Origin: Escherichia coli
GTDB taxonomy: Bacteria > Pseudomonadota > Gammaproteobacteria > Enterobacterales > Enterobacteriaceae
Reading direction: 5' to 3' (one strand)
DNA length: 64,000 nt
NCBI RefSeq assembly: GCF_044324785.1
Contig: NZ_CP172127.1
Below, one piece after another: positions 26,577-59,083 of the stretch (positions are counted from its first letter, which is position 1; the number at the start of each line of letters is the position of its first letter). The position numbers and the translations under genes were made by a program. The notes beneath the pieces are model-generated. The model made no database searches and was not told where the DNA came from. It was given only the letters and a program-made list of their open reading frames with translations.

Positions 26577-26586
26577 GGCGAAAATA

Positions 26587-26850: not shown

Positions 26851-26990
26851 TGAAAGTCCTTAACTCTCTGCGTACCGCAAAAGAACGCCATCCAGACTGT
26901 CAGATTGTGAAGCGAAAAGGACGGCTGTATGTGATTTGTAAATCTAATCCACGTTTTAAGGCCGTTCAGGGTCGTAAGAAAAAACGTTGA
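26850..26990 (+). CDS. rpmJ2: ribosomal protein L36 paralog
   Basis: Its ATG overlaps the rpmE2 stop (ATGA). It encodes [46 protein letters not shown] (46 aa). It is below the ORF-track size cutoff. Confidence 0.9.
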
Positions 26991-27041
26991 GTTAAAATTC
27001 GACGAATTAACGATATTTGTCTGATTAATAATCAGACCGGA

Positions 27042-27080
27042 TTAATGTTGGTGTATTTATTACACCAGCATTAATTTTCC
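27042..27080 (+). terminator. rho-independent terminator after rpmJ2
   Basis: 14-bp stem ttaatgttggtgta / tacaccagcattaa with a 5-nt loop, followed by TTTT. Confidence 0.8.
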
Positions 27081-41760: not shown

Positions 41761-42954
41761 CTAAAGCGCACCGGCCTTCTGGCGTGCGGTAACAAAGGTC
41801 AGTACGCCAGCGCAAAGGAGCAGCACGCTACTCATAGCAAACGTGCTCTGCCAGCCAAGGCGGTCAAATACGATGCCTCCTGCTGTTGATCCAAGGGCGA
41901 TGGCGAGCTGAATCACCGCGACCATGAGCCCGCCTCCGGCTTCGGCGTTGTCAGGCAACGTACGCGCAATCCATGTCCACCATCCGGTTGGCGCGGCGGT
42001 GGCCAGCATGCCCCAGAGTCCTAACAGCAGCGAGACCGTCCAGACGTGATGCCCGGTAAGCATCAGACCGATAGCAATGACGGCCATCAGTCCGGGTATG
42101 GCCATCAGCGTGGGGTAGAATTTTCTGTTGAGAAATGCCGAAACAACCAGCGTGCCAATAAAACCGGCCACGCCGATAATCAGCAAAATCAACGACAAGC
42201 CTAAGGAATTAACCCGTGTCACCGACTCCAGAAACGGGCGCACATAGGTGAATAGCGCAAACTGCCCCATGAAAAACAGGCCACAAGCTATCATGCCGAC
42301 CACAACCATGCGGCGGCTAAATAAGCGGAATACCGCGCCAAGTGACGTGTGGCTTTTATTCGCATCCATACTGGGCAGGCTGATGCACTGCCAGATAAAG
42401 GCGACAACCGCGATGGGCACCAGGCACAAGAAAGCGCCTCGCCATCCGACCGTAGCCCCCAGATAGCTTCCCAGCGGTGCGGCCACGACCGTCGCCAGCG
42501 CATTACCGGCGTTGAAAATTGCCAGCGCACGCGTGACCTGATGCTGCGGCACCAGACGAATCGCCGTTGCCGCTGACATCGACCAGAATCCGCCAATAGC
42601 CACACCAATCATCGCACGACCGACCATATACATCAGATAACTGGAAGCCAGCGCAATAATAAGCCCCGATACGGCCATCAGAACCGTCATCCCCAGCAGC
42701 AGGAACTTACGATTCATCTTTCCAGCTAGCGTTGAAAGCGTCAGGCTGGTCAGAACCGCCAGCGCGCCGGAGATAGCAATCCCCTGCCCTGCCAGCCCCT
42801 CCGTCACGCCTAAATCGCGGGTAATCGGCGTGAGCAGGCTGACGGGCATAAATTCAGAAGCAATCAGCACAAACACGCACAGGGTCATGGCAAAAATACC
42901 GCCCCAGTATGCGTGCTGATGATGAGGTGATGGTGTTTGGCTTAGTGTCGACAT
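41761..42954 (-). CDS. MFS transporter (DHA1/AraJ-like, 12 TM)
   Basis: 397-aa polytopic ORF with an MFS-like loop motif. No specific substrate can be inferred. Confidence 0.8.
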   Translation of the reverse strand: MSTLSQTPSPHHQHAYWGGIFAMTLCVFVLIASEFMPVSLLTPITRDLGVTEGLAGQGIAISGALAVLTSLTLSTLAGKMNRKFLLLGMTVLMAVSGLIIALASSYLMYMVGRAMIGVAIGGFWSMSAATAIRLVPQHQVTRALAIFNAGNALATVVAAPLGSYLGATVGWRGAFLCLVPIAVVAFIWQCISLPSMDANKSHTSLGAVFRLFSRRMVVVGMIACGLFFMGQFALFTYVRPFLESVTRVNSLGLSLILLIIGVAGFIGTLVVSAFLNRKFYPTLMAIPGLMAVIAIGLMLTGHHVWTVSLLLGLWGMLATAAPTGWWTWIARTLPDNAEAGGGLMVAVIQLAIALGSTAGGIVFDRLGWQSTFAMSSVLLLCAGVLTFVTARQKAGAL

Positions 42955-43029
42955 AGTGAAATTTCACAAAGATCAGGATAAAAGCCACCTGCCATAGACC
43001 GGTGGCTTTGCATCAATTCAGGAGAGGTT

Positions 43030-44166
43030 TTATTTCAGTTTGGTCTGGAAAAATTGCTCGAACTTCGCGAAAGGTATTTTTCCGGCCACGTTATCGTACA
43101 GGTCCACGTGATTTGCCCCTGTTACCACCACCAACTCTTTGTCTTTACTGCCAACCGCCTTGTAAGCATCTTCAGCAAAATAGCGTGAATGTGCTTTCTC
43201 ACCGGTCACAATCAGCGTCGGAATGGTGATTTCACTGGCGTAGCTCAACAGCGGCATATTCATAAATGACAGCGGCATCGTTGCCGTCCACGCCCCGGTA
43301 GAGTTAACGGAACGTTCGTGGAAGCCGCGCGGCATGCGATAGTAGTCAAAGAACTCTTTCAGTACCGGATGAGGATTTGCCGGCAGCGTTTCTGGCAGAA
43401 TACGCTCGCCCGCACTGACCTTGCCGTTGCTGTCGACATTAATATCATGACCACCGTGAGCGAACGTTCCGCTCTGCGCATCCTTCCAGCGCTGTTCATT
43501 CAGATATTGCAGAACAGCACGACGGTCGGCGGTAGAATAACGGTCTTTGCCATCCCCCACACCATGGCCCATCGCCCGGCTCATGTCATACATCACGCTG
43601 GTAGCTACCGCTTTAACGCGGGTATCCATCGCCGCGTCGTTCAGCGCCATGCCGCCCCAGCCACAAATACCGAGCAGCCCGATACGGTTGCGATCTACCT
43701 CTTTTTGCAGCCCTAAGAAATCCACCGCCGCGCTGAAATCTTCAGTGTTGATATCCGGTGAGGCGACGTTTCGCGGATAGCCGCCACTTTCCCCGGTGTA
43801 AGAAGGATCGAACGCCAGGGTAACAAACCCTCGTTCCGCCAGCGTCTGCGCATACAAGCCGCTGGATTGCTCTTTCACCGCGCCAAATGGCCCACTGACC
43901 GCAATCGCCGCCAGCTTGCGATCGCCACGGTCTTTAGGCAGGTAAAGATCGCCCACTAAGGTGATGCCATATCGGTTCGGGAACGAGACTTTACGGTGAT
44001 CGACTTTCTGGCTCTCGGCGAACGTTTTATCCCATTTATCTGTCATGGACACAGGGGCATTAGGATTGGTTGAATCAGCATAACTCATTGTCGTGACTCC
44101 ACTTAATGATGCGAAAAGCAGCATGGTCGGCATCGCGGTTTTTAGCGTTCGGGTGAAGGCTTTCAT
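43030..44166 (-). CDS. secreted alpha/beta-hydrolase-fold protein
   Basis: ATG 44166 follows GGGGA. Signal peptide MKAFTRTLKTAMPTMLLFASLSGVTTMSYA and a nucleophile-elbow-like GICGWGG. Confidence 0.75.
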   Translation of the reverse strand: MKAFTRTLKTAMPTMLLFASLSGVTTMSYADSTNPNAPVSMTDKWDKTFAESQKVDHRKVSFPNRYGITLVGDLYLPKDRGDRKLAAIAVSGPFGAVKEQSSGLYAQTLAERGFVTLAFDPSYTGESGGYPRNVASPDINTEDFSAAVDFLGLQKEVDRNRIGLLGICGWGGMALNDAAMDTRVKAVATSVMYDMSRAMGHGVGDGKDRYSTADRRAVLQYLNEQRWKDAQSGTFAHGGHDINVDSNGKVSAGERILPETLPANPHPVLKEFFDYYRMPRGFHERSVNSTGAWTATMPLSFMNMPLLSYASEITIPTLIVTGEKAHSRYFAEDAYKAVGSKDKELVVVTGANHVDLYDNVAGKIPFAKFEQFFQTKLK

Positions 44167-44352
44167 AAAAATCCCCATAAAAAACAACAGAGAGATACAG
44201 GTTTCCGACGGACAACGCTGCGGTGCTTTACTTTGATGGGGTCATTATAGTGAGCAGAATTAGTGCTGATTAGGGGGCGATTAATGCTAAGATTAATACC
44301 ATATTGTTATAAATTAATGCGGAGATTGCCGGCATGAAGGAGGGATGTTTCA

Positions 44353-45237
44353 ATGGCGAAAAGGGAGAACTATAACGAGCTGTACCTGTTTATGCAGGTG
44401 GTGCGAGAAGGCAGCTTTACCGCAGCGGCTCAGCGGCTGGGTCTTGCTCAGTCAGGAGTCAGCCGTTCTGTTCGCGAGCTTGAAGAAAGGCTGGGCGTCC
44501 AGCTGCTAGTGCGCACCACGCGTAAACTGTCGCTGACACAAGCAGGCGAGCAGCTCTACCAGAAGACGGCATCTGGATTTGAAATGTTAGATCTTGGGCT
44601 TGCCACGCTGGCGCACTATCGAGAGACGCCCTCCGGCACTGTGCGTATCAATGCCAGCCAGCACGCGATTGATAAATGCCTGCTGCCAAAGCTGGCGGTA
44701 TTTAAACAGCGATATCCTGATATCCGGCTTGAACTGATAAATGAGAGCCGGTTCGTCGATATCATCGAGGAAAGATTCGATGCAGGTGTCCGCCTGGGGC
44801 CTGAAGTCGGCCAGGGTATGGTCGCGGTACGCATCACGCCCGATATGGAGATGGCAATTGTGGGGACTCCGGAACATTTTCGTCGCTATGGTTTTCCGCA
44901 AACCCCGGCGGATTTAAAGGCGCATCCCTGTATCGCCTATCAGTTTGCCGACGGCAGCGTATACCAGTGGGAACTCAATCAGGATGATAAAAAAATCACT
45001 CATCGCCCTGAAGGGCAATGGGCCTTATCCGACAGCTATATGGAAGCAGAAGCAGCCCGGCTGGGCCTCGGATTGGCCTATGTTCCTGTTGAACTGGTCG
45101 CGGATGATTTAGAACACGGTAAGCTTATCAGGGTGTTGCAGCGTTACAGCCTGCGAATGGAGGGATTGTTTCTCTATTACCCTCATCGCAACGTCTCCCC
45201 CGCCCTGCGGATGGTCATTGATACATTGAAAATCTGA
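44353..45237 (+). CDS. yagP: LysR-family regulator (full-length counterpart of the K-12 yagP remnant, by position)
   Basis: HTH FTAAAQRLGLAQSGVSRSVRELEERL, 294 aa. It is divergent from the hydrolase/MFS pair. The symbol comes from synteny only. Confidence 0.7.
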   Translation: MAKRENYNELYLFMQVVREGSFTAAAQRLGLAQSGVSRSVRELEERLGVQLLVRTTRKLSLTQAGEQLYQKTASGFEMLDLGLATLAHYRETPSGTVRINASQHAIDKCLLPKLAVFKQRYPDIRLELINESRFVDIIEERFDAGVRLGPEVGQGMVAVRITPDMEMAIVGTPEHFRRYGFPQTPADLKAHPCIAYQFADGSVYQWELNQDDKKITHRPEGQWALSDSYMEAEAARLGLGLAYVPVELVADDLEHGKLIRVLQRYSLRMEGLFLYYPHRNVSPALRMVIDTLKI

Positions 45238-45453
45238 ACGTTAACAACGACCGACTCTTCACTGTGCAAAATTGTGTCAGGTAGTCCCTCTGCGTTCAAT
45301 TCCAGGGTCTGTACACCCTGCTTTGAGCGAGAAAGAGGGGACTATCCAGCAATGGAGATCACCCAAAAGAAAAAACCACCAGGCTCCCTCGACAACCTTC
45401 ATCCGGGCATTTAGCCTCAATCAACATTTTTATATCTGTCAGGTTACTTCATT

Positions 45454-45690
45454 ATGAAAACTGATCATCATCGTTGTTTTTGTTGCAATAGTAGAATACG
45501 CGTATTTATTCCTCCATCTCTATTAATAACGGCAATAAACTGTTCACTTCACTGATATTTAAAATATACATCCTTTTCAAGCTGTTCAGCGGCGTAAGAA
45601 AAAGTATTAATTATGAATTCGACGATTTAACCATTTCTGGCTGATTGGTAATCATCTGTGATTAATGCTGGTCTATTGATTACGCCAGCA
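45454..45690 (+). pseudogene. degenerate paralogous copy of the ykgR ... rpmJ2 3' end ... terminator locus
   Basis: 45457-45573 aligns with 26155-26270 (about 90 percent identity by eye). 45581-45690 aligns with 26961-27070 (about 70-75 percent). The ykgR-like frame has lost 29 nt after ATGAAA. Confidence 0.7.
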
Positions 45691-46600
45691 CCCTCTCTAG
45701 CTTATTCACCGCCGCCACATACTTCGCCGGATTTTTATCTTTCAGCACCGCCAGATTACGTTGCTTCCAGCGAATAGCCGGAAGATGCTGAATTTCAGGA
45801 TAGCGATACCGCGACCAGTCAGGGCTGTTTTGCTTAAAACTGAGCAAGAACTCGCGATCCAGATCCGTAAGATGTGACTTCAACGCCTGCGGCAGCAAAG
45901 TCGTTACTGACAGCAGCGATTCCAGCGACGTTTCCTGCTGAGTCATCCCCGAAAATTCCTGAGCATACAGCGTCGTGATCCGCTCTGTATCCCAGTTTGG
46001 GGCCAGCAACTCGGCAATGGGGCGGGGATGGCCTGCCAGATAACAAAGAAAACCGTCAAAGATCTCCCGCATCAGTCCCGGTTTCTCCAGCATATTCAGC
46101 ACATCAAACAGATCGCGCGGGTGCTGACGATCAAGCGCTGCGCAGATTTTACCGCCATAAAGATCCGCCAGCGAGACGACACTCATGGTGGTGAAGCCAT
46201 ACTCCATTTCCACACGTTCGCACACAGGCATTTCTGCCGGAGGCAACAACAGCCCGCGCCAGACCGGGCTAACCTCGATCTTAATCTTTGCATCAGCGGT
46301 ATTCACAATGATGCGCTTTTCATCCGCTTTATTTTCCTGCCGAATCGCGGTGATCCCCGGTCTGCCGTTCAGCGATGCAGTAATCCTCTTCAAAGCGTCG
46401 TTGATAGCCGCCAGATCAGTATCGCGATCCGCAAAGCTCTTATACGCCAGATCAATATCCACCGACAGACGGGGAAAATCCTGCACAAACAAATTGATTG
46501 CCGTGCCGCCTTTCAACGCGAAACAGGACTCCTTCGCCACATGCGGCAGAGCAGCCATCAACAGCTTAACCTGCCGGGCATAACTATCACGCAGATCCAT
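45680..46600 (-). CDS. AbiEii/AbiGii-family nucleotidyltransferase toxin (type IV TA / abortive infection)
   Basis: Typical DUF1814 N-terminus FALKGGTAINLFVQDFPRLSVDIDLAY. 306 aa. It overlaps the upstream partner by 14 nt. Confidence 0.85.
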   Translation of the reverse strand: MDLRDSYARQVKLLMAALPHVAKESCFALKGGTAINLFVQDFPRLSVDIDLAYKSFADRDTDLAAINDALKRITASLNGRPGITAIRQENKADEKRIIVNTADAKIKIEVSPVWRGLLLPPAEMPVCERVEMEYGFTTMSVVSLADLYGGKICAALDRQHPRDLFDVLNMLEKPGLMREIFDGFLCYLAGHPRPIAELLAPNWDTERITTLYAQEFSGMTQQETSLESLLSVTTLLPQALKSHLTDLDREFLLSFKQNSPDWSRYRYPEIQHLPAIRWKQRNLAVLKDKNPAKYVAAVNKLERVLA

Positions 46601-47390
46601 CTTCGACTCCTTCCGGTTTAAATGCGCGTGGAACAGTAATTTGATAATCCGGCTCCAGCCAGCCGCCGGGTATGATTTGCCGCTTTCCCGTACCTGTTTC
46701 TATACCGCTTTGATCAATATACTGAAAATAAGGGTGTCCATTACGCCGGGCAAGGTAAAGCATCACCCGGTTGGTTTTAACCGAATGACTGGCGCAGAGT
46801 AACGCCTGCAATTTACGCGGGCTGAGAAGATTCATCCCCTGAAACAGAGCATCGGCATGTTCGAACGATATCAACGAAGGAACGCCGCAGGCGATCTCAT
46901 ACGCGGCCAGTTCCGGGGCACTGCCTGCTAACTGCCGGTCGCCAATTTTCAGTTCCGTAGTCAATGACGTTACATCTACGGTAAGCCCCGATGTATACAG
47001 CGTGATAAATGTTGCAGATTGTTCGAAGGCAGCAAACCATCCCGGCAGCTTAACGTAAGCCGGAAGCGCGAGCCAGACCTGCGGCTTACCCGGTTCGGTA
47101 TAGTGCGCATGGCCCTGAAACGCAAGGCTGGTTAGCCCCGCCACCCGAACAGGCTTTTCCCACTGTGTTTGAAGGCAGTAAACCGCGTCTACCCAATCCG
47201 GCTCACGGCCCGTCCGGCAGTACACGCCGTGAGCGATGCGCCTGAGCCAGCCATTTTGAACATAGAGATAAGAAAGCTTACGATCTACGCCGTTGCGGGT
47301 AAGCCATGACTGGAGCAGCACCTGACCGGGTAGCGTATTTTGCATCAACCAGTTTAGATAGTTTGGCAAATGTCGCTCCTGAATAGACAT
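46587..47390 (-). CDS. AbiEi-family antitoxin / transcriptional regulator
   Basis: 267 aa with an N-terminal winged-helix region containing WLRRIAHGVYCRTG. It lies upstream of, and is translationally coupled to, the nucleotidyltransferase. Confidence 0.8.
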   Translation of the reverse strand: MSIQERHLPNYLNWLMQNTLPGQVLLQSWLTRNGVDRKLSYLYVQNGWLRRIAHGVYCRTGREPDWVDAVYCLQTQWEKPVRVAGLTSLAFQGHAHYTEPGKPQVWLALPAYVKLPGWFAAFEQSATFITLYTSGLTVDVTSLTTELKIGDRQLAGSAPELAAYEIACGVPSLISFEHADALFQGMNLLSPRKLQALLCASHSVKTNRVMLYLARRNGHPYFQYIDQSGIETGTGKRQIIPGGWLEPDYQITVPRAFKPEGVEDGSA

Positions 47391-47652
47391 TAGTAGAAAT
47401 ATTTAAACCAGTGTAGGTTCAGGGATACGCCACAGCAAGAAATAGTTTACTTATTCCTCATTTTGTCTACTTAAAATTGACATTGAGAAAAAAATACAAA
47501 CTTACCTACATTCAGGCAAAGTGCGACAAATAGACTCGGTCGGTTTAAAGAGAACGTGTAACATAGATGCAAATCGAATAGACATTGTTGCCAGCCGTTC
47601 CAAGGTTGTGGGGCGCTGCATGGCCTGAGACGTGATAAATACAGGGAACACA

Positions 47653-50600
47653 ATGAAATTCACTGAAGATACCCGAGTAAAAATCCCCGTCATCCTCCAC
47701 CTGATACGGCTGGGCTACCACTACCTGTCCCTTAAAGAACAACGCTGGGACAAAGAAACCAATATCTTCCCTGACCTCTTCACCGCTGCGATTGGCAGAA
47801 TAAATCCCGGACTTGTGCCAGACGACATCGGACGCCTGTTAAAAGACCTCACGCTGCTTCTCGACAACGATGATCTGGGCCGCGCCTTCTTCGAAAAACT
47901 CAGTGACCGTTCCGGTATCAAACTGATCGACTTTGATAACTTCAACAACAACAGTTTCCATGTCGTCACCGAACTGACCTGCGAAAACGGTGATGAAGAA
48001 TTCCGCCCGGACATCACGCTGCTGATCAACGGCATGCCGCTAATCTTTATCGAAGTGAAAAAACCCAACAATCGGGAAGGCATCGTCGCAGAACGCAACC
48101 GCATCAACGAACGCTTTAAAAACCCCAAATTCAAACGCTTCGCCAACATCACCCAGTTCATGATCTTCTCCAATAACATGGAGTATGACGACAGCGACCC
48201 GGAGCCGATTCAAGGGGCATTCTACGCCAGCAGCTCTTACAGCAACCCGGTATTCAACTACTTCCGCGAAGAAGAACTCTTCAACCTGACCAACTTACTG
48301 AAACCGCTGTCAGAAGAAACCGAAATCGCCGTCCTGAAAGACAACAACCTGGAAGTGATCCGCACCAACCCGGAATTTCAGACCAACAAAGATCACAACC
48401 GCCCGACAAACCGCCTCTGCACCGCGCTGTTGAGCCGGGATCGGCTGGCATTTATCCTGCGCTATGCGCTGGTGTATGTAGCCGAACCGGGCGGCATCCA
48501 AAAACACATCATGCGCTACCCGCAGCTCTTCGCCACCAAAGCGATTGAGCGCAAACTGAACGCTGGCGTGAAAAAAGGCATTATCTGGCACACCCAGGGC
48601 AGTGGGAAAACCGCATTGGCATACTACAACGTGCGCTTCCTGACAGATTACTTCCAGAATCAGCAGGTGATCCCGAAATTCTACTTTATTGTCGATCGTC
48701 TTGATCTGCTCCAGCAGGCGCAGCGTGAATTCACCGCCCGTGGCTTAATCGTTCACCTTATCGACTCCCGCGAAGCCTTCACCCGCGATATCAAAGCGAC
48801 GCAGGCGCTGCACAACCACCACGGCAAAGCGGAAATCACCGTCGTCAACATCCAGAAATTCCGCGATGACCCGGATGTCGTCACCACCAAAGACTACGAC
48901 ATCAACATCCAACGCGTGTACTTCCTCGATGAAGTCCACCGCAGCTACAACCCCAAAGGGAGCTTCCTGGCGAATTTAAGCCAGTCGGACACCAACGCCA
49001 TCAAAATTGGCCTGACCGGTACGCCTCTGCTGGGCACAGACTACAACTCCCGCGACCTCTTCGGCGACTACATCCACAAATACTACTACAACGCCTCCAT
49101 TGCCGACGGCTACACGCTGCGCCTGATCCGTGAAGAGATCGCCACCAACTACCGGATGATCCTGCAACAGGCGCTAAAAGACGTAGAAGTCAGAATGGGC
49201 GATGTGGATCGCAAAGACATCTACGCCCATCCCAGTTTCGTCAAACCGATGCTGAACTACATCGTCACCGACTTTGCCAAAAGCCGGGGCGCACTGAATG
49301 ATGACACCATCGGCGGCATGGTGATTTGCGACAGCTCAGAACAGGCCAAGCAGATGTTTGAGATATTCAACACTGACTACGCCGAATCGCCCACCGCTGC
49401 CGATGACGTCGCCGAAGAAATGCCGGTATTACAGGCCGCAGAGCCTGCCGCCGTTTACCAGATCCACGCCAAAGAAACGCGGAAAATCAAACGCGCCGCC
49501 CTGATCCTGCACGACGTCGGCAGCAAGCAGGAGCGCAAAGAATGGGTGGATCAATTCAAAGCGGGCGAGATTGACCTGCTGTTCGTCTACAACATGTTGC
49601 TCACGGGCTTTGACGCCAAACGGCTAAAAAAACTCTACCTCGGGCGGGTGATCAGAAAGCACAACCTGCTCCAGGCGCTGACCCGCGTCAACCGAACCTA
49701 CAACCACTTCCGCTACGGCTATGTGGTGGACTTCGCCGACATCCGCCAGGAATTTGACGCCACCAACAAAGCCTACTTCGAAGAGCTACAGGCTGAACTG
49801 GGCGATGAAATGGAGCATTACTCCCGCCTGTTCAAATCAGCGGATGAGATTCGCGAAGAAATCGAACATATCAAAGACGTTCTGTTTAGCTTCGATACCG
49901 AAAACGCGGAAATCTTCACTGACCAGATAAACCAGATCCATGACCGGGAAACCGCGCTGGTACTGAAAAACGCGCTGGCCGACGCCCGCAGCCTGTACAA
50001 CCTGATTCGCCTCCAGGGCAACACTGAGTTTCTCCAGGCGCTGGATTTCAACAAACTCAACATCCTTTACCGCGAAGCCAGCCGCCGCCTCGACTTACTC
50101 AACCTGAAGGCGGATCTGGAACAGGGTGTTGACCTCTCCGGCCTGCTGAACCGGGCGCTGGAAGAGGTGATCTTTGAATTCCACAAAGTGGGCGAAGAAG
50201 AGCTGGTACTGGCCGACGAGCTGAAAGAGACGCTGCGCCGCACCCGCGAAGCGCTGGCCGCCAACTTCGACCAGCAGGACCCGCAGTTCGTCAGCCTGAA
50301 AGACGAACTGGAGCGTCTGTTTAAGAAAAAGAAACTCAGCGAAGTCACCCAGCAAGAAATGGTTGCGAATATCGGCACACTCAATAAAATTCATGGCCGC
50401 ATCAAAGAGCTAAACCGCCAAAATAACCTGCTGCGCCAGAAATACCGTGGCGACGTGAAATACGCGCGTACCCACAAACGCCTGCGCGAGCGCGGCGGCC
50501 TGAGCGAGCCGGAGCGTAAAATCTTCGAAGCACTGCTTGGCGTTAAGCTGGATGCGGATGAAAAAGTGCTGAATAACAGCCAGATACTGAACAACGAAAG

Positions 50601-50751
50601 CTATTTTGAGCGGCAGATTGTGTCATGTGTACTCGATCACTTTGAACAACAGCAGCACATCACCCTGAGTGCGAAAGCGGCTGGCGACATCAACCGCCTG
50701 ATTGTGGCGGAATACCTGAACGAATTTAATACCGGAGCACGTACGTGGTAG
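47653..50751 (+). CDS. hsdR: type I restriction enzyme R subunit HsdR
   Basis: N-terminal PD-(D/E)xK nuclease motif (RPDITLLINGMPLIFIEVKK), and helicase motifs GSGKT and DEVH. Start at ATG 47653 (MKFTEDT). Confidence 0.9.
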   Translation: MKFTEDTRVKIPVILHLIRLGYHYLSLKEQRWDKETNIFPDLFTAAIGRINPGLVPDDIGRLLKDLTLLLDNDDLGRAFFEKLSDRSGIKLIDFDNFNNNSFHVVTELTCENGDEEFRPDITLLINGMPLIFIEVKKPNNREGIVAERNRINERFKNPKFKRFANITQFMIFSNNMEYDDSDPEPIQGAFYASSSYSNPVFNYFREEELFNLTNLLKPLSEETEIAVLKDNNLEVIRTNPEFQTNKDHNRPTNRLCTALLSRDRLAFILRYALVYVAEPGGIQKHIMRYPQLFATKAIERKLNAGVKKGIIWHTQGSGKTALAYYNVRFLTDYFQNQQVIPKFYFIVDRLDLLQQAQREFTARGLIVHLIDSREAFTRDIKATQALHNHHGKAEITVVNIQKFRDDPDVVTTKDYDINIQRVYFLDEVHRSYNPKGSFLANLSQSDTNAIKIGLTGTPLLGTDYNSRDLFGDYIHKYYYNASIADGYTLRLIREEIATNYRMILQQALKDVEVRMGDVDRKDIYAHPSFVKPMLNYIVTDFAKSRGALNDDTIGGMVICDSSEQAKQMFEIFNTDYAESPTAADDVAEEMPVLQAAEPAAVYQIHAKETRKIKRAALILHDVGSKQERKEWVDQFKAGEIDLLFVYNMLLTGFDAKRLKKLYLGRVIRKHNLLQALTRVNRTYNHFRYGYVVDFADIRQEFDATNKAYFEELQAELGDEMEHYSRLFKSADEIREEIEHIKDVLFSFDTENAEIFTDQINQIHDRETALVLKNALADARSLYNLIRLQGNTEFLQALDFNKLNILYREASRRLDLLNLKADLEQGVDLSGLLNRALEEVIFEFHKVGEEELVLADELKETLRRTREALAANFDQQDPQFVSLKDELERLFKKKKLSEVTQQEMVANIGTLNKIHGRIKELNRQNNLLRQKYRGDVKYARTHKRLRERGGLSEPERKIFEALLGVKLDADEKVLNNSQILNNESYFERQIVSCVLDHFEQQQHITLSAKAAGDINRLIVAEYLNEFNTGARTW

Positions 50752-50909
50752 AACTGTAATTTAGAGATAAAACCAAAACCCTGATCGACAGCCTGAAAAG
50801 CATCTGTGCGAACTACGGCCTGGGCAACGACGGTAACGAATTCAAAATTATCACTCAGGCATTCCTGTACAAATTCCTGAACGACAAATTCGCCTTTGAA
50901 GCCAAAAAG

Positions 50910-52382
50910 GTGGATAAAAGCATCGCCAGCGCCGAAAAATGGGAAGTCGCGCTCAATCAGATGAGCGAAGAACAGCGGGATAAACTGCAACTGAAGATGA
51001 GCGCCGACACTGCGCGTCTGAAGCCGCATCACTTCATTCAGTATTTATACAACCGTCAAAATGAGGCCAATTTCGCCACCACCTTTGACGACACCCTGAT
51101 GGACATCGCCGCCACCAACAACGACGTCTTCGCGGTCAAAACTGACGGCGGCGCGAAAGTGGTGCTGTTTGAGCGCCTCAGCCAGTACATCGCCGACGAA
51201 TCAAGGCGCGACGACTTCTGCCGCGCCATTATCAACAAACTGGCCGATTTCAGCTTCGAGCGCATCTTCACGCAGAAATTCGACTTCTACGCCACTATCT
51301 TTGAATACCTGATCAAAGACTACAACAGCAACTCCGGCGGCAAATACGCGGAATACTATACGCCCCACGCCGTGGCGCGCATCATGGCGGAAATCCTGGT
51401 GCCGAAAGCACAACAGGGCGTAGTGCGCAACGTAAGCTGTTACGACCCGTCCGCCGGTTCCGGCACCTTACTGATGAACGTGGCGCACGCCATCGGGGAA
51501 GATCGTTGCAGCATCTTCGCGCAGGACATCTCGCAGAAATCCTCCAGCCTGCTGCGCCTGAACCTGATCCTCAACAATCTGGTGCATTCGATCCCCAACG
51601 TGATTCAGGGCAACACCATTCTGCACCCGTTCCACAAGGACGGCAGCGCGCTGAAACGCTTTGACTATATCGTCTCTAACCCGCCGTTTAAGATGGATTT
51701 CAGCGATTTCCGCGACGATTTGGATAGCAAGGAAAACCAGCAACGTTTCTTTGCCGGGATACCAAAAATCAAAGCCAAAGCCAGGGACAAAATGGAAATT
51801 TACCAGTTGTTCCTGCAACACATCATTTTCTCGCTGAAACCGGATGGTAAGGCGGCGGTCGTGGTGCCGACCGGGTTTATCACCGCGCAGTCGGGCATTG
51901 ATAAAGGGATTCGCGAACATCTGGTGAAAAACAAGATGCTGGCGGGTGTGGTTTCCATGCCGTCGAATATCTTCGCCACCACCGGCACTAACGTATCGAT
52001 CCTGTTTATTGACGCCAGCAACAAAGAGAAAGTGGTGCTGATCGACGCCTCGAATTTAGGTGAAAAGGTCAAAGACGGCAAAAACCAGAAAACGGTGCTG
52101 ACCGAAGAAGAAGAGCAGCGCATCTGCGAAGTGTTCAACAACAAGTGGAGCGAAGAGGATTTCTCGGTGGTGGTCAGCTATGACGAGATCGCCGGGAAAA
52201 ATTACTCGTTCAGCGCCGGGCAGTATTTCGATGTGAAAATTGAATACACCGATATGACGCCGGAACAGTTTGCCGCGAAGATGAACGGGTTTACGGAGAA
52301 TCTGGAGAGTTTGTTTAGCCAGTCGCGCGAGCTGGAGGTGGAGATTAAAAAGCAGATGGCGGGGCTGAATTTCCATGGTTAA
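50910..52382 (+). CDS. hsdM: type I R-M methyltransferase subunit HsdM (start codon problematic, see findings)
   Basis: AdoMet motif DPSAGSGTLL and catalytic NPPF. The reading frame is open and HsdM-N-like from 50760, but the first canonical start is GTG 50910. Confidence 0.8.
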   Translation: MDKSIASAEKWEVALNQMSEEQRDKLQLKMSADTARLKPHHFIQYLYNRQNEANFATTFDDTLMDIAATNNDVFAVKTDGGAKVVLFERLSQYIADESRRDDFCRAIINKLADFSFERIFTQKFDFYATIFEYLIKDYNSNSGGKYAEYYTPHAVARIMAEILVPKAQQGVVRNVSCYDPSAGSGTLLMNVAHAIGEDRCSIFAQDISQKSSSLLRLNLILNNLVHSIPNVIQGNTILHPFHKDGSALKRFDYIVSNPPFKMDFSDFRDDLDSKENQQRFFAGIPKIKAKARDKMEIYQLFLQHIIFSLKPDGKAAVVVPTGFITAQSGIDKGIREHLVKNKMLAGVVSMPSNIFATTGTNVSILFIDASNKEKVVLIDASNLGEKVKDGKNQKTVLTEEEEQRICEVFNNKWSEEDFSVVVSYDEIAGKNYSFSAGQYFDVKIEYTDMTPEQFAAKMNGFTENLESLFSQSRELEVEIKKQMAGLNFHG

Positions 52383-53493
52383 AACTATTGGTGATGCTTG
52401 TAATATTAGTACAGGTAAACTTGATGCAAACCAGGCTGTAAAAGGTGGTGATTATCCGTTTTTTACGTGCGCAGAGTTCCCTGAACAAATCGATCATTAT
52501 GCATTTGACGGCGATGTGGTTCTTATTGCTGGCAATAATGCAAGAGGAAACTTTCACGTAAGCAGGTATCAAGGGAAATTTAATGCTTACCAGCGAACCT
52601 ATGTGCTTACAGCCAAACATGGTTATGATATTGATTATATTTACTATGCCTTAAGACTTGAATTAAAGCGATTGCGAGAAAAATCTCAAGGCTCGCAAAC
52701 AAAGTTTCTGACAATGCCGATTTTGACCAGTATATCGCTAGGAAACCTAGTCGAGACTGAACAATCGACAGTTTCAAGAGTATTAAAAATACTGGATAAA
52801 AAAATCGCTCTCAACAATCGTATCAACGCCGAGCTGGAAGCGATGGCGAAAACACTGTATGACTACTGGTTTGTACAGTTTGATTTCCCTGATGCCAACG
52901 GAAAACCGTATAAAACCTCCGGCGGGAAGATGGTGTACAACGCCACGCTGAAACGGGAAATTCCGGCGGGGTGGAATATTAAAAATCTTGGCGATATAGC
53001 GGAACTATATCAGCCTAAGACCATTTCAGGTAACGATTTTATTGATGATGGTGAATATCTTGTATATGGAGCCAACGGTATTGTAGGAAGATTCAATAAA
53101 TATAACCATGAAGAACCTGTCGTTACAATCACCTGCCGTGGAAATACGTGCGGCAATATAAACGTCACACGACCATATTCATGGATTACAGGGAATGCAA
53201 TGGTGGTTAAGCCAAAGTTTAACTATATTTCACCTTATTATATTTATAATTTATTGTCGATATCGGAAGTTGATAAAGTCATTACTGGCTCTGCTCAACC
53301 TCAAATTACGCGAGCAAACCTAGCTCCACTTAAGGTTGTTGAACCAGCAGAGGACATTACGCAAAAATACTCAAAGTCTGTTGATGCTTTTTTTAAAAAG
53401 CATATCTCAATATTAGATGAAAATGATAATTTATTAAAACTCCGCGACTGGCTCCTCCCCCTGCTTATGAACGGACAGGTCACGGTCAAATAA
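52375..53493 (+). CDS. hsdS: type I R-M specificity subunit HsdS (two target-recognition domains)
   Basis: Its ATG overlaps the hsdM stop. It has two low-GC TRDs separated by the conserved spacer LDKKIALNNRINAELEAMAKTLYDYWFVQFDFP, and a conserved C-terminal LRDWLLPLLMNGQV. Confidence 0.85.
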   Translation: MVKTIGDACNISTGKLDANQAVKGGDYPFFTCAEFPEQIDHYAFDGDVVLIAGNNARGNFHVSRYQGKFNAYQRTYVLTAKHGYDIDYIYYALRLELKRLREKSQGSQTKFLTMPILTSISLGNLVETEQSTVSRVLKILDKKIALNNRINAELEAMAKTLYDYWFVQFDFPDANGKPYKTSGGKMVYNATLKREIPAGWNIKNLGDIAELYQPKTISGNDFIDDGEYLVYGANGIVGRFNKYNHEEPVVTITCRGNTCGNINVTRPYSWITGNAMVVKPKFNYISPYYIYNLLSISEVDKVITGSAQPQITRANLAPLKVVEPAEDITQKYSKSVDAFFKKHISILDENDNLLKLRDWLLPLLMNGQVTVK

Positions 53494-53632
53494 TCCCCGC
53501 CGTGTTTTGCGAGGCGCATTCCAGATCCACATTGCGCCGCGCTCACCGCTGTAAAACCGCTTGCCGTTCATAACCGATCGAAGTATCTTTCTCCCGCGCC
53601 TGCAAAATCAGGCGTCGGGATTAGCCTCCTGA

Positions 53633-53645
53633 AAACCGTTACAGG
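53633..53645 (+). promoter_or_regulatory. upstream target repeat (seqA-like) of the antisense RNA
   Basis: AAACCGTTACAGG; its CGTTACAGG is complementary to RNA loop nt 53739-53747. A GATTAGCCTC repeat (53619-53628) precedes it. Confidence 0.55.
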
Positions 53646-53700
53646 CGACACTTGACGCACCAGCGTCTTTTTTGTGTCGTGCGTTCGGCTACACCTCAAT

Positions 53701-53782
53701 GGCGGGCCGGGCGGGGGCGTCGCAAGACGCGCCGGTTTCCTGTAACGCCGGTAAGGCTAACCCCGTCCGGTTCCGCCACCCA
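53701..53782 (+). ncRNA. tRNA-like antisense regulatory RNA of the phage P1 C4 / P4 CI type
   Basis: Hand-folded structure. The long terminal stem pairs 53701-53716 with 53761-53777 (one bulge). A GCAA-tetraloop hairpin spans 53717-53730. A second hairpin (53731-53752) has a 12-nt loop, UUUCCUGUAACG. The 3' tail is ACCCA. The loop is complementary to both flanking repeats. Confidence 0.6.
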
Positions 53783-53813
53783 TGAGATTAGCCTCTCTAG
53801 TGGCGGACATAAT

Positions 53814-53829
53814 AAACCGTTACAGGAGA
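53814..53829 (+). promoter_or_regulatory. downstream target repeat (seqC-like) overlapping the SD of the 156-aa ORF
   Basis: CGTTACAGGAGA (53818-53829) can pair with all 12 loop nucleotides (one G-U pair). It contains AGGAG (53824-53828), 7 nt before ATG 53836. Confidence 0.55.
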
Positions 53830-53835
53830 TGCCCT

Positions 53836-54306
53836 ATGGCTACAATCCTCACCCCTGACTGCGATTTACTCGATCTGTTATCCGTTCCCTTCAATGCCAC
53901 CACGGATTTTACTGTCCTTGCCGATTACTGCACCCGCTTCGCCGAAACCCTGATAGAAACCGACGATCCCGCGCTGCGGCTGGCGCTGAGCGGACGGCTT
54001 CACGCGGCTCTTGCGCTACTGCAACCCACACTGCATGACCCCATCCCGCCGCATCTTACCGAAAGCCTGACCGTTAATACCCTTCCCGCCACACCAGAGC
54101 ACTTTATTTCCGAACCCGATTCCTTGTGCGAATACTGCCTCGCACTGCTCCAGCTTCTGCTGGAACGCCCGGCGGAGCCAAAAATGGAGCAAACCCTGAC
54201 CGGGCTGCTGTGTGAGCTGGTCTGGAATTTCACGGAAGGACTCAAATCCCCGCGCTGGCTGCGTACCGCCGACGGCGTAAAATTTATCAGTGAGGTGGCC
54301 GCATGA
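53836..54306 (+). CDS. hypothetical acidic Leu-rich protein, 156 aa, no recognisable domain
   Basis: ATG with a good SD. It starts [15 protein letters not shown]... No TM segment or signal peptide. Its stop overlaps the start of the next (broken) gene. Confidence 0.6.
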
Positions 54307-54449
54307 TGCAACAGGACTGGCATTCCACCGACATTATCGCCACGCTGAAAAAGCGGGGAACGTCTCTGGCGGCGCAGAGAAAAACTCATTGCGGACGCGC
54401 TGTAAATATCGTCAGAAATCATCTGGCCTTCAAGGTACTTTGATAGCAA
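54303..54449 (+). pseudogene. Ner/Nlp-like small DNA-binding protein, internally deleted and interrupted
   Basis: The N-terminus [24 protein letters not shown] resembles Ner/Nlp. The characteristic C-terminus (S)EI(I)WPSRYF appears only in another frame, after a stop. Confidence 0.55.
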
Positions 54450-54451
54450 AG

Positions 54452-54655
54452 GCAAGCAGGCTGGTTCAGTCCCGTGTTTCTCTTCTTGCATTTTCAGAAA
54501 TGGGAGGCTGGGAGTCTATCGAAATGGTTCGTCGATATGCTCACCTCGCACCTAATCACCTTACCGAACACGCACGGCAAATAGACTCGATCCTGAACCC
54601 ATCGGTCCCAAATTTGTCCCAGTCAAAAAATAAGGAAGGTACTAATGATGTGTAA
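54452..54655 (+). pseudogene. C-terminal ~67 codons of a lambdoid (P22-type) tyrosine integrase
   Basis: [37 protein letters not shown] contains the catalytic-Tyr box (RYAHL). There is no N-terminal or core domain upstream. It ends 14 nt before the att core. Confidence 0.75.
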
Positions 54656-54669
54656 CTTATTGATTTAAA

Positions 54670-54715
54670 TGGTGCCGATAATAGGAGTCGAACCTACGAC
54701 CTTCGCATTACGAAT
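54670..54715 (-). other. 46-nt 3' fragment of tRNA-Thr (thrW): attachment-site core, not a functional tRNA
   Basis: The reverse complement reads ATTCGTAATGCGAAGGTCGTAGGTTCGACTCCTATTATCGGCACCA, which is the anticodon loop, T-arm, acceptor 3' strand and CCA as I recall thrW. The 5' half is absent. Confidence 0.75.
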
Positions 54716-55044
54716 CTGTAGAACCAATCATAACTATCTGTTTTAGCAAGCATTAACCGCATTCACCAAGCAATAGTTGATGGCACAAACAGAAAGTTGA
54801 TGCATGATGTTGTCATGTGTATGTCACAAATACGGCACAACGATCTTCAAACATGTAGCCACCCAGCATAGAAGAGCACAAATCCTTGCAATCCAGTGCA
54901 AAGCTTTGTGTACCTTAGTTTTGTCTCATAGGTAATTCTGCTTTAACTGCGATGCAGGAATCTGTCACCAGACGCACGTCTCGTTGTTTTATGGTTTTCC
55001 GTTCATGATTAATATGTTAGCTTGTCAAAGTTTGTGTTTAAGAT

Positions 55045-55735: not shown

Positions 55736-58105
55736 TTAAATAAACATAAGAATAAACATCAGAAGTTCTTCGTATCTGATACCATACTGATAGCCAGCAG
55801 GTTTAATAATAACCTGCCTTCCTGTGTAATATTCCTCGTCGTACCACTCTCCTGTTTCATTGTTTTTAACACTCCTAATCAATACCTCTGGAGCATAAAT
55901 ATCATCCCATTCATCATAACACCAGAACGCATAGTTATTAGGGTCAAGACCGTATTTTCTGAGAATATTACCTACAGTTTGTGCACCAACGCCGAAATGA
56001 ATCCGAGCGCCATCACTCTTGATCTTTACTGCATCTTTAAATTTAAACCTCCAGATATTTTCCTTTATTTCAAGCGCAGCAAGACGCTCTGATTCTGTTG
56101 TTTTCTCGTCAGCCTCAATACGCAATTTCAGCTCTTCATTCGACGTGTTGATACTGCCAGTACCAGCGTATACCTGTGACCATCGAAATGCTGATGTTCC
56201 GTTTGAGTTAACATTATCAACAGTTGGTTTTATAAGGCCAGAAAAATGAGTTTCAGGTGTATTAATATATGTATATGCACCTGCTGTACTACGAGTCCTT
56301 AACTCAAAGCTGTCTATATCAACACCAGTCCTACGAATTATAAGGAAGTTATTTCCTGCGGAACCAGTATCGGTTTGAGTGCTAACAGACAATCCGTTTC
56401 GTGTATCAATACGTATATTCTTCCCGTTCTCCAGCGAAGCAGAATTATGTAGATACAGCGAGTTGTCAGTGTAGAGATTGTGTTTACCTACATTGCTAAA
56501 TGTATAAGTATTGCTTGTGTTATCACTGTTCCTATGGAATTGCTGAAGAGTGTAGGCAGAAGATGCTCCGTATCCATCACAATGGAAATTTCTGCACAGC
56601 TGCAAATCGAATAACAATACGGTGTCAGCATTAATGCTCACATTATTAAAGCATGTTGCAAAGTTGGCACCATACTGTGAATTGGAATCGCCAATCTGTG
56701 CGCACACATCAAGCAAACCAAAAGTTACATTGGTAAAGTTATTTGCATCACCGGCGTCAAGAACAATCCCTTTCTTAGTCCCTGAATACCCTCTGGCAGT
56801 GCCGATCTCAACTCCCTGGAATGAACACACGCGAGCACGACTAAGCTTAAGACCAACCCATTCCAGACCATGATCGTAACCTTTTGCTGCGCGGTGAATA
56901 AACATACCATTCATGATGAGAAGGAATCTGTTATCAAGCCGTACTGGTTCAAGTTGGGCATTAATACCAACATTTGTGCATATACATTCACCATAAGCAT
57001 AACGATTCGTTTCAAATATACGATCATCAGCGTCGTAAATGCCTCGTAATGCCTTGGCGGCATCAATATTAAGCAATGTAAAATATGTCTTCTGCTTAAT
57101 TTCAAAAAAATTTGCAACATTATGCGTTGTGATATCACTCACACGCATTGATAAAATCCCCTCTTCTGGAGCGGTGCGAATGAATCCATCAAGGAACTGT
57201 TCATTATAACTTTTGGCTATCTGATAACATCCAACAGCATCAATGCGTTCGATTGTGAACTGCCAACTATCACCACAGTTAAAAGACCATCTCCAGCCGT
57301 ATTTCTGAGCGAATTCATCATATTCAACATTTGCAGGTTCAGAACAGAAAGATAAAAATCTAAATGTTGGTTTTGGCCTTAGATGGTTAATCCCGGAACC
57401 TCTTGGGGTATATATGGCATTATCTCCATTCCCACCTTTTGTTTTAACTGTAAGGTGACTTAAACCAAATTCAATATCATATTTAGTTGGTGCGGCGAAA
57501 ACAAAGCCGTCTTTTGGTGATGTGGTATTGTCAAACACAATAACCGTTTCACCCTGCCCATCACCGCACATATTTACTGGTGGTATATTAACGGGGCCAG
57601 TCAAACTATATGTTCCAGTTGGCACATATAGTTTTCCACCCTCTCCAATAGCATTTGCCGCTGCAATAAATGCCGCCGTATCATCGTTAACACCGTCACC
57701 TTTCGCCCCATAATGCTGTGGCGTAATTAACAGCATACGGTCAGAAAAAATCTCTGTCCTAAGTTGATCAGGATCGTATTTTAATACATTTGGAAAATAA
57801 AACTGCTGAGTGCCATATGCATCATATACAGCCATAGAATGGCCTTGCACGGTAACGAATTTGGCAATCTGTCCGTTATATACCGGATAACCAGCAGCGT
57901 TAATAATGATTGGTTGAGAAACAGGAACGTGAGAACCGTCTTCGTTCTCTACATAAACCGGAATCTGGTTTTCAGGATTTACCGGGTCAGTGTCAATTTT
58001 ACCGATATAAATTTTTCCATTAGCATTTGCTTTAAACGAGCGAGCTAAAGTGAATAACTGACTTGGTTGTGAAACAACAACATTGGCATTTATTGAATCT
58101 GTCAT
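55736..58105 (-). CDS. tailspike: P22 gp9-type head-binding domain + pectate-lyase-like beta-helix depolymerase + C-terminal intramolecular chaperone (peptidase S74-like) domain
   Basis: The N-terminus [18 protein letters not shown]...[26 protein letters not shown]...[13 protein letters not shown] is nearly the P22 gp9 N-domain. [19 protein letters not shown] is a beta-helix signature. The C-terminal part has NTSNEELK (Ser-x4-Lys) and a chaperone-like tail. Confidence 0.9.
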
Positions 58106-58204: not shown

Positions 58205-59083
58205 TCAGTAGTTATGTACTGAAGGAGGTAATTCTTTATTCTTAAGTCTCATCCATGCGGAAATATTCGTTGGTCCGTCTGGCTCATTAATATCAACATC
58301 TCGTGTGTGATTGATTAAAACGTCTCTCGCCATTCCGATAACATACGAGAATTCATGACCGTAGTCGTAGCATCTGCCGGAATAGTTCGATTGAATTTGT
58401 TTCAGCGCCGGATACAGTTCGCGGAATAATGCCTGTGAGCGGTTGGCATAATCCCATAACCATACAAGGCTGTTTGCTTCTTTTGCAGAAAGCTCGTTGG
58501 TTTTCTTCTCTTGTTTGCCAATGAACTCACCTTCAAGCACTACCCTGTGGATGTACTCTACGGCCAGCGGGATTTGTTCAATTGAAAGTTCATCAATGCT
58601 GTCAATACCAAAACGCTGATGAACCATATTGTATGCATCGTCATAGCGAAGTCCTTTCTTTCCTACCAGCATGTTTACTGCATCGCGTAGCGGTGTTCTT
58701 TCCTCAACAGTGGTTTTCTTTCCTTTTACATACTCGCCATGTTTGCGAATTGAAGGCAGAACTTCTGCTGTTACCCACTTGCGGAATTTGTGCGGGACTG
58801 AACCTTTATTGACTGCATCGCGGCAGCGCAGAACCAATGTATACATACCTGATTCGCTCACAATGCTTAGATTCTGCTCACCACCAAGGGTGTAACTTAA
58901 AGTTACTCCCTTTTCATCGTCATCAAGTGCAGTAAGCGCCTTGCGTGAGTTAGTCAAATCTAAAGCATCACAAACATCTTTAGCTACAAACCACGGCTCA
59001 CCGCACTTGTTGATGACGCGGATTTCACTGTCGCCGAATTTGAAGATGGTGAAATCGTTTTGTGCCTTTGCTATACTTTTCAT
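58205..59083 (-). CDS. ant: antirepressor Ant (Bro-N + KilA-C type)
   Basis: [28 protein letters not shown]...[11 protein letters not shown] is a Bro-N domain. It is immediately downstream of arc, as in P22 immI. Confidence 0.9.

Follow-up and report, generated by a model that had tools for sequence, protein, structure and literature searches.

The stretch of the Escherichia coli chromosome analyzed here (contig NZ_CP172127.1 of assembly GCF_044324785.1; its 64,000 bp are called "the window" below) carries one intact ykgR-ykgM-ykgO unit, in which a gene for a small membrane protein (ykgR) stands beside genes for type B ribosomal proteins L31 (L31B; ykgM) and L36 (L36B; ykgO). We call this unit copy 1. 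Our analysis of a second site 19,303 bp away shows that positions 45458-45690 are a 233-bp non-functional remnant of a second version of the same unit. The explanation that we prefer, and in which we have good confidence, is that this relic was joined to its present neighbors through short microhomologies at both ends, and that it descends from a unit like the one carried today by a few E. coli genomes that lack the intervening 19 kb (the "S-type" genomes, below). The features of the relic and its two borders are as follows.

45238-45453, + strand: spacer 3' of LysR1 (a LysR-type regulator gene at 44353-45237), a homologue of the spacer between LysR1 and LysR2 in Atlantibacter sp. RC6
45454-45457, + strand: ATG(A), most likely what is left of the start codon of a second LysR-type gene, now lost (LysR2'), from synteny with Atlantibacter sp. 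RC6
45458-45465, + strand: left junction microhomology AAACTGAT; AAAATGAT of LysR2 codons 2-4 against AAACTGAT of ykgR codons 12-14, 7/8 identical
45458-45526, + strand: ykgR' pseudogene, codons 12-33 (KLIIIVVFVAIVEYAYLFLHLY) and stop, 91% identical to 26155-26223
45527-45574, + strand: homologue of the 48-nt ykgR 3' flank (26224-26271)
45574-45577, + strand: collapse junction, TTTT; about 670-682 bp of copy 1 absent
45575-45610, + strand: remnant of the last 11 codons (FQAVQRRKKKY) and stop of a ykgO-type (type B L36) gene, from translation and the YkgO of four genera
45611-45690, + strand: remnant of the ykgO-downstream spacer and terminator hairpin, including the ykgL 3' end on the other strand, from folding
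about 45667-45689: surviving hairpin, its right arm cut at 45690
45679-45690: right junction, where the relic hairpin arm and the 3' end of abiEii share the 12-nt microhomology ATTACGCCAGCA, from comparison of the window, ST131 and O145
45680-46600, - strand: abiEii (306 amino acids (AAs); PF08843), first gene of an island with AbiE and type I restriction-modification genes

When positions 45300-45900 were compared by blastn with the rest of the window (the query region being masked in the target), 45458-45574 matched 26155-26271 at 106 of 117 positions (91%, E 7e-42) and 45574-45690 matched 26954-27070 at 88 of 117 (75%, E 2e-17). Both matches are ungapped and on the direct strand, and all remaining self-matches have E values of 0.1 or more. 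An earlier reading of the letters of the window alone (the sequence-only reading) had proposed that a second, collapsed copy of the ykgR-(L31B/L36B) locus exists here and that a self-BLASTN would show it; the similarity is indeed significant, and the coordinates, the 11 mismatches and the 70-75 percent identity given in that reading were essentially right. It had also placed the two segments 7 nt apart, whereas the alignments show that they abut and share the TTTT at 45574-45577. In copy 1 the same segments are separated by 682 bp (26272-26953). Homology to copy 1 reaches about 27106 (some 36 bp farther) in O157, O145 and other genomes; in the window the relic stops at 45690.

The 5' part of the relic holds the last two-thirds of a ykgR frame. 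A TGA stands just upstream in this frame (45455-45457), no ATG, GTG or TTG follows it, and the encoded peptide aligns with positions 12-33 only of the 33-position equivalog model NF041474, at 36.1 bits and under the 40-bit cut-off; with no full-length match, no in-frame start and none of the polar N-terminal 11 residues, it is not a YkgR protein. Relative to copy 1, silent changes prevail in it (in the window 5 codons, against 2 with replacements), and the O157/O145 relics carry the polar replacements L13P, I22T and F29S. The 3' part holds the FQAVQRRKKKY tail with its stop at the position homologous to the stop of copy-1 YkgO. Since the tail is in frame, is followed by the stop, and is conserved in the YkgO proteins of Klebsiella, Salmonella and Enterobacter, positions 45575-45610 must, to judge from this reading frame, descend from a real L36B gene, although with just 11 codons and the stop left they no longer match type B L36 (NF002021, 41 positions). 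Whether a ribosomal gene cassette had once been present here or had been inserted in copy 1 was posed earlier as an either/or; the in-frame ykgO tail shows that the cassette was once present and was deleted here, and not that it was inserted in copy 1. The spacer and hairpin beyond the tail (of which TTCAAGCTGTTCAGCGGCGTAAGA is an example of the relic-type ykgO 3' end and terminator sequence) resemble only the E. coli-type locus and not the ylaC-linked ykgM-ykgO genes of other genera, and residues 63-75 of YkgL match positions 45686-45648.

The deletion at the collapse junction took the Zur-box region, ykgM and ykgO codons 1-35, and the relic has no counterpart to 26272-26953 of copy 1, including the TGTTATAACATAACA palindrome and ykgM of the Zur-regulated operon. 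MLI121 and the S-type genomes retain 8-9 additional nt at this junction (TTCCTGCT or TTTTCTGCT, alignable with CTCCCTTTTTT of copy 1), so the original deletion was of about 670 bp, and the window strain has lost 9 nt more. In GF4-3 the 9-mer TTCAAGCTG is present in three tandem copies at the junction (locus L086, about 9270-9330).

The left end of the relic was identified through the LysR1 gene that precedes it. In Atlantibacter sp. RC6 (L006) the sequence that follows LysR1 is identical to window positions 45238-45470 at 189 of 247 positions (E 1e-46), and there an identical TTCATTATGAAAA (ATGAAAA) opens a 302-AA open reading frame (ORF) for a full-length LysR-type regulator according to NCBIfam; the sequence 5' of 45454 gave no alignment with the ykgR promoter region. 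The homology of both spacer and ATG to Atlantibacter, together with the TGA in the ykgR frame, indicates that the ATGAAA at 45454 is most likely not the start of ykgR but the stump of LysR2', and the simplest reading of the alignments is that ykgR' was cut at codon 12 by an illegitimate (microhomology) join. This join lies within AAA[A/C]TGAT, and the parents, as aligned, are LysR2 of L006 and S-type ykgR. At both the left and the right joins the two parents can thus be named, and the overlap is in the range (a few to about 12 nt) of a microhomology junction. Annotators may note that an ATG before a gene fragment need not be the start of that gene.

A species-level scan of GTDB with LysR1 as the query gave 80 loci. 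The hydrolase-LysR1 gene pair is present in all but a few cut or partial loci, and most loci with the pair also have a major facilitator superfamily (MFS) gene; none of the 80 has ykgR, ykgM or ykgO nearby, none stands beside pao, and the spacer homology is extended only in L006. The left join also creates a 33-codon ORF, out of frame with ykgR (45454-45555; MKTDHHRCFCCNSRIRVFIPPSLLITAINCSLH), which is open in all five of the relic variants inspected; it has no NCBIfam match, and replacement differences between strains, as read from the aligned sequences, are about as frequent in it as silent ones. A variant in the length of the A-run (ATGAAAACTG), which might restore a 23-AA in-frame YkgR in some strains, was considered and rejected, as there are four A's in all five aligned relics and in the metagenome contigs printed through that point.

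At the right end the sequence ATTAC[G/T]CCAGCA is common to the relic hairpin arm (O145, TATTGATTACGCCAGCATTAACC) and to the abiEii 3' end (ST131, AATATTACTCCAGCACCCTCT), with 11 of the 12 nt identical. The window carries the G of the relic, which places the crossover within CCAGCA. The relic thus supplies the stop codon of abiEii (45680-45682) and its last codon (45683-45685): the AbiEii C-terminus is VLA-stop in the window and VLE-stop in ST131, and the protein is 306 AAs long in both. The proposal that the island junction crosses the abiEii 3' end is borne out by this three-way comparison, which also answers the suggestion that the C-terminal length of AbiEii be checked; the insertion of the island replaced the last codon and the stop of the toxin gene and left its length unchanged. 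AbiEii is a type IV toxin-antitoxin component, with the nucleotidyltransferase domain PF08843 (6e-36) and an adjacent AbiEi (PF11459/PF17194). In the window the island comprises AbiE and type I restriction-modification (HsdR/M/S) genes from 45691 to 54670, and it extends to a 46-nt fragment of the 3' end of thrW (54671-54716), an att-type partial copy; ARAGORN found no tRNA gene anywhere in the window. The suggestion that the relic forms the left edge of the island holds for the window strain and for 295 genomes with this junction, but elsewhere the relic is followed by hyp-SDR-LysR-thrW (hypothetical protein, short-chain dehydrogenase/reductase and LysR genes, then thrW) or by other islands. 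Beyond the thrW fragment lie P22-like prophage genes, for a tailspike (55739-58105) and an antirepressor (58208-59083), and an insertion sequence (IS) transposase gene (59742-60707); the position of the fragment between the defense island and the P22-like genes indicates that elements are stacked in tandem at thrW.

LysR1 followed by the relic is present in 908 of 5426 complete E. coli genomes, and 83% of the genomes lack the segment. The sampled places where the two occur together each span 480-501 bp, so all of them are collapsed. A synthetic restored locus (the LysR1 end and the relic, with the 682 bp of copy 1 spliced in), searched in distant mode, found no genome among the 5426 with at least 80% of it in one place, and no intact second cassette adjoins LysR1 in any of them, so that the intact second ykgR-rpmE-rpmJ locus that had been suggested as worth a search was not found there. 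A metagenome scan for the relic-type tail gave 32 contigs, all collapsed, and the matches in the plasmid collection were all either copies derived from the E. coli chromosome or loci of the ylaC type from other genera. In one metagenome contig (L141) the LysR2' ATG and ykgR' codons 12-20 are gone as well, through an additional deletion of 197 bp. K-12 lacks the relic owing to a deletion from the paoD end into LysR3 (yagP); this single deletion accounts for the absence from K-12 of the MFS module, the relic and the hyp-SDR-LysR3 cassette. The yagP gene of K-12 (L003, 5382-5792) is the remnant of the 3' end of LysR3 of that cassette and is 98.5% identical to 6EVA.

A chimeric query, in which the sequence upstream of copy 1 and the 5' part of its ykgR were joined to the 3' part of the relic, is matched continuously in only three of the 5426 genomes, the S-type genomes 6EVA, wlxctx60 and GF4-3. 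In these genomes betA-...-fdeC-ykgP'-ykgR leads into the collapsed ykgO tail and hyp-SDR-LysR3, after which stress/ferritin/Mn-catalase genes and the remnant of an integrase gene precede thrW and proA. They are without the whole 19-kb ykgM-ykgO-ecp-ykgJ-yagU-pao-MFS-LysR interval, and are the genomes with that interval missing for which the sequence-only reading had suggested a search. Their ykgR is intact, encodes a protein identical to that of K-12 and is their sole ykgR locus, and in 6EVA, where just two sites were checked, ykgM-ykgO is absent from both the ykgR-linked and the pdeB-ylaC position. There is thus a rare E. coli haplotype without the L31B/L36B paralogues, ecp and pao at the fdeC-thrW site. 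From ykgR codon 12 through LysR3 the S-type genomes are colinear with, and 96-97% identical to, O157/O145. The hyp-SDR-LysR3 cassette that follows the relic in O157/O145 and in the S-type genomes (its hyp gene is DUF1471-like; L087-L092; L002, 8741-10906) is mobile cargo, about 83% identical in nucleotide sequence to copies in P2-like prophage, plasmid and island contexts of Klebsiella and Atlantibacter. The SDR neighbor was tried as a marker of ancestry and rejected; a cassette that occurs in phage and plasmid contexts is uninformative.

The S-type ykgR and all relic copies share the synonymous states ATC/GTT/ATA where copy 1 has ATT/GTC/ATT. The S-type genomes also have the copy-1 states GCC, TTT and CAGTG, and are without the derived TTC/TCC and CACTG (present in all five aligned relics) and GCG (in four); the MLI121 relic is intermediate in that it retains GCC and the additional junction nt. 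A crossover between the present copy 1 and copy 2 predicts copy-1 states in the 5' part and relic states in the 3' part, and the S-type shows the reverse. In addition, 6EVA and GF4-3 are 2.1% (proAB) to 3.8% (betAB) apart, about as far from each other as either is from the window or from E. coli strain 042. This reversed pattern and the mutual divergence make the S-type look like an old haplotype rather than a recent repeat-mediated deletion, and no recent recombinants between the direct repeats are present among the 5426 genomes. Between the relic and copy 1 the ykgR segment has an exact run of at most 30 nt, and the tail segment one of at most 11 nt; perfect identity of about 25 nt or more is a rough threshold for RecA-type homologous recombination, which the 30-nt run exceeds. 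The idea that the direct repeats are a substrate for deletion or duplication is therefore sound with respect to sequence identity, but only three of the 5426 genomes have the deleted topology, their pattern is old, and no recent crossover was seen.

The two parts of the relic have diverged unequally from copy 1. In the window ykgR and its flank differ at 11 of 117 positions and the ykgO tail at 29 of 117 (Fisher p 0.003); for the S-type genome 6EVA the corresponding differences are 4 and 28 of 117 (p 5e-6). Such uneven divergence fits a functional, selected ykgR beside an already decaying ykgO tail, as in the S-type unit. From the homologies, reading frames, junctions, population counts and S-type genomes described above we infer that the two copies are two haplotypes of one locus that were put in tandem, and not the products of an in-place duplication. 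The ancestor of the relic would have been an S-type unit, with an intact ykgR and an already collapsed ykgO tail, and one homologous join (at fdeC-ykgR, or at thrW-proA) plus one illegitimate join would have built the tandem, which may have formed in either direction. The other haplotype would have had the series ykgR-ykgM-ykgO-ecp-pao-MFS-LysR1-LysR2, with the right-hand part of an S-type locus joined to its end. On the left, ykgR codon 12 is fused to the ATG of what is most likely the lost LysR gene that followed an imported MFS-hydrolase-LysR module; on the right, the 3' arm of the terminator is fused to the abiEii 3' end of a thrW-linked defense island.

A more specific proposal is that the 19-kb ykgM-ykgO-ecp-ykgJ-yagU-pao-MFS-LysR segment was placed beside ykgR in a single event, and that the relic is the stump left on the recipient side; we offer it tentatively, as rather unlikely. 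If it is true, the ancestral locus was S-type (an intact ykgR, L31B/L36B already lost, then hyp-SDR-LysR-thrW), a later import gave most E. coli the common-pilus operon and the zinc-sparing paralogues of ribosomal proteins that they have here, the import was anchored by homology on one side and by the 8-nt microhomology on the other, and the three S-type genomes are surviving pre-import haplotypes.

Four points weigh against the explanation that we prefer. The 117-bp segment offers just 6 informative sites. That the ATG is the start of LysR2 is read from one genome (L006), and none of the 79 other LysR1 loci has a LysR2 within 8 kb. Gene conversion between the copies could also give uneven divergence. 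Finally, S-type and two-copy ancestry are not polarized, because an outgroup Escherichia locus was not found through searches with LysR1, SDR, YkgM or EcpR homologues. YkgM homologues were rejected as outgroups: those at 92-93% are a separate L31B paralogue (on islands that are integrative and conjugative element (ICE)-like or urease-linked) or E. coli indel alleles, and the one at 80% is the ylaC-linked locus of a sequencing-run assembly. The EcpR homologues include none from other Escherichia species, and the ecp genes of Klebsiella and Enterobacter are in unrelated contexts.

The alternative that survives best is that the two copies are ancient tandem paralogues, two full units kept alike in ykgR by gene conversion, of which the second lost ykgM-ykgO and was then cut by the LysR module, the S-type genomes being old deletions. 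The S-type topology is what a crossover between the two ykgR genes should produce, the low divergence of ykgR beside the high divergence of the tail is compatible with concerted evolution, and the 30-nt perfect stretch does exist; however, relic states at the 5' and copy-1 states at the 3' informative sites are the opposite of what a simple crossover gives, there are no recent recombinants in the 5426 genomes, and the S-type lineages are about 2-4% apart. We regard this alternative as rather unlikely, and it agrees with a tandem of haplotypes on every correction made here to the sequence-only reading.

Much less probable, in our view, is a local ykgR-rpmE2-rpmJ2 duplication that decayed in place, keeping its own ATGAAA while losing 29 internal nt of ykgR and, through a 690-bp deletion, the cassette. 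This account has in its favor the ATGAAA at 45454, the 29-nt shortfall when one counts from that ATG, and a 682-bp gap that is real. It meets the difficulty that both the ATG and the preceding 216 bp have their homologues in the LysR2 start and LysR1-LysR2 spacer of Atlantibacter and not in a ykgR promoter; as that homology runs to 45470 and the ATGAAAA starts LysR2 there, the claim that the ykgR-like gene keeps ATGAAA and lacks 29 nt is largely refuted. A copy born truncated should, moreover, decay evenly, and here the ykgR part is 9% and the tail 25% different.

We see no sign of function in the relic and take it to be an ordinary genomic scar. No promoter-like site was found in it by scanning, and Rfam gave no match there; a consensus terminator scan flagged neither copy at the hairpin, its sole terminator-like match being on the other strand at 45369-45390. 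On folding, the hairpin of copy 1 has -29.2 kcal/mol (z -6.0), that of the window relic -18.1 (z -1.9) and that of the untruncated O145 relic -24.2 (z -3.4); the window hairpin is the weaker because it is cut at 45690. Functional roles for the segment, as the source of the 33-AA micro-protein, as a shortened YkgR, or as a terminator shared by convergent genes, are hardly credible to us. It is true that the 33-codon ORF is open in five relic variants, that a hairpin survives at 45667-45689, and that abiEii takes its stop from the relic; but there is no promoter-like site, no terminator-like site at the hairpin and no Rfam or NCBIfam match, replacement changes in the ORF are about as common as silent ones, the YkgR frame has a TGA upstream, no start, and L13P, I22T and F29S in O157/O145, natural further deletion has occurred, 83% of genomes do without the segment, and the hairpin z score is only -1.9. 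What it contributes is incidental: the last codon and stop of abiEii and, perhaps, a residual hairpin between convergent genes. Similarity through chance or low-complexity sequence can be dismissed, given E values of 7e-42 and 2e-17 with the next match at 0.1, and the retention of the structure in 908 genomes.

Copy 1 is an intact unit with the following features, identified with NCBIfam and the K-12 annotation.

26122-27106 (end approximate), + strand: copy 1
26122-26223, + strand: ykgR (NF041474, 78.1 bits over positions 1-33)
to about 26283, + strand: ykgR 3' flank
about 26560-26576, + strand: Zur-box-like palindrome TGTTATAACATAACA upstream of ykgM, presumably the Zur box
26587-26850, + strand: ykgM, type B L31 (NCBIfam, 123 bits)
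26850-26990, + strand: ykgO, type B L36 (NF002021, 91 bits over positions 1-41)
to about 27106: double hairpin terminator and ykgL 3' end

The ykgL gene (27028-27250, - strand) lies opposite the ykgO terminator, and K-12 YkgL matches there as three pieces in different frames; either it is disrupted in the window strain or it is no real gene. The window is 98-99% identical to E. coli 042 over the relic region. In 042 the gene order is ecpD-ecpE-ykgJ-yagU-paoABCD, MFS transporter, alpha/beta hydrolase, LysR1, ykgR pseudogene and abiEii-abiEi, and the abiE island extends to the tRNA-Thr gene (thrW) and proA. In Salmonella, Klebsiella, Enterobacter and one sequencing-run assembly (L097-L099, L103-L105) ykgM-ykgO lies between an EAL-domain (pdeB-like) gene and ylaC, and in 6EVA (L112, 33867-36051) pdeB directly adjoins ylaC; E. 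coli therefore has the operon beside ykgR through relocation or separate acquisition.

In about 650 of the 5426 E. coli genomes a ykgM-like sequence is matched, more weakly, at a second or third place. In the two examples fetched, from other assemblies (L100, 7900-8300; L107, 10001-10333), there is a Zur-box-like palindrome and a 92-AA L31B paralogue with a 15-nt tandem duplication, 77% nucleotide identity to ykgM and a degenerate ykgO start, located in one case between TraG_N and LysE genes (an ICE-like element) and in the other next to a urease cluster that is accompanied by IS66 and hok. The L100 locus, the one example compared, has no ykgR and no similarity to the relic. To judge from these two, the extra places in the roughly 650 genomes are probably an unrelated palindrome and L31B paralogue on ICE-like and urease-island elements, and this zinc-paralogue ribosomal gene appears to travel on mobile elements. 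The ecpRABCDE genes (L109, L110) are found on a 213-kb replicon of Enterobacter mori among defense and mobile genes, and at an unrelated chromosomal site in Klebsiella pneumoniae (whose EcpR is 93% identical to that of E. coli); ecp therefore also acts as a movable module. The MFS transporter-alpha/beta hydrolase-LysR1 module (41800-45237) is present in species of many Enterobacterales genera, never beside pao. The hydrolase and LysR1 proteins of Citrobacter amalonaticus, Kluyvera, Atlantibacter and Klebsiella spallanzanii are 97-98% identical to the E. coli ones (90-94% for MFS), and this cross-genus identity suggests that the module was exchanged recently between genera. The stretch from fdeC to thrW is thus a mosaic of modules that move separately (ykgMO, ecp, pao, MFS-hydrolase-LysR, hyp-SDR-LysR and the defense islands), and both of the joins that can be read in the window strain were made through microhomology. 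The practical importance of the relic is small; its value is as a marker of how the chromosome was assembled at a known rearrangement hotspot near thrW.

The relic can be compared with several known systems. The 69-nt ykgR piece is already marked by RefSeq/PGAP as a pseudogene, "small membrane protein YkgR, incomplete; missing N-terminus" (EC042_RS31720, D8Z67_RS29245, EW649_RS27375), and some genomes annotate it as "hypothetical protein". This pseudogene is the same as 45458-45526, placed between the LysR gene and the thrW-side genes, but it covers the ykgR piece only; no annotation exists for the ykgO tail, for the collapse junction, for the LysR2' start or for either microhomology join. Of the 30 papers that mention ykgR, the 15 listed do not discuss the relic, to judge from their titles and abstracts. 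New here are the ykgO tail, the joins through microhomology at both ends, the correction of the misattributed ATG and the rare S-type haplotype. Homology-facilitated illegitimate recombination is known from the natural transformation of Acinetobacter, Pseudomonas stutzeri and pneumococcus, and the 19-kb interval resembles its products in having fdeC-ykgR homology on one side and a 7/8-nt join on the other, with an 11/12-nt join at the island border; such a mechanism is read here from sequence only, and a circular intermediate that integrated in the Campbell manner would lead to an identical product. The ykgR-ykgM-ykgO genes of K-12 (b4671, b0296, b4506) are a small membrane protein gene beside a Zur-regulated type B L31/L36 operon. 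The relic is like them in ykgR codons 12-33 and the 3' flank, the ykgO 3' end, the terminator and the ykgL end, with order and orientation kept, and unlike them in that it is without the start codon, the Zur-box region, ykgM and ykgO codons 1-35, and in its 25% different tail. The thrW-proximal relics of K-12 (the ptwF thrW fragment and yagP, at the CP4-6 border) occupy the same hotspot and are the debris of a partial tRNA copy and a truncated regulator; unlike those att-site and regulator remnants, the debris in the window is the remnant of a ribosomal-paralogue locus.

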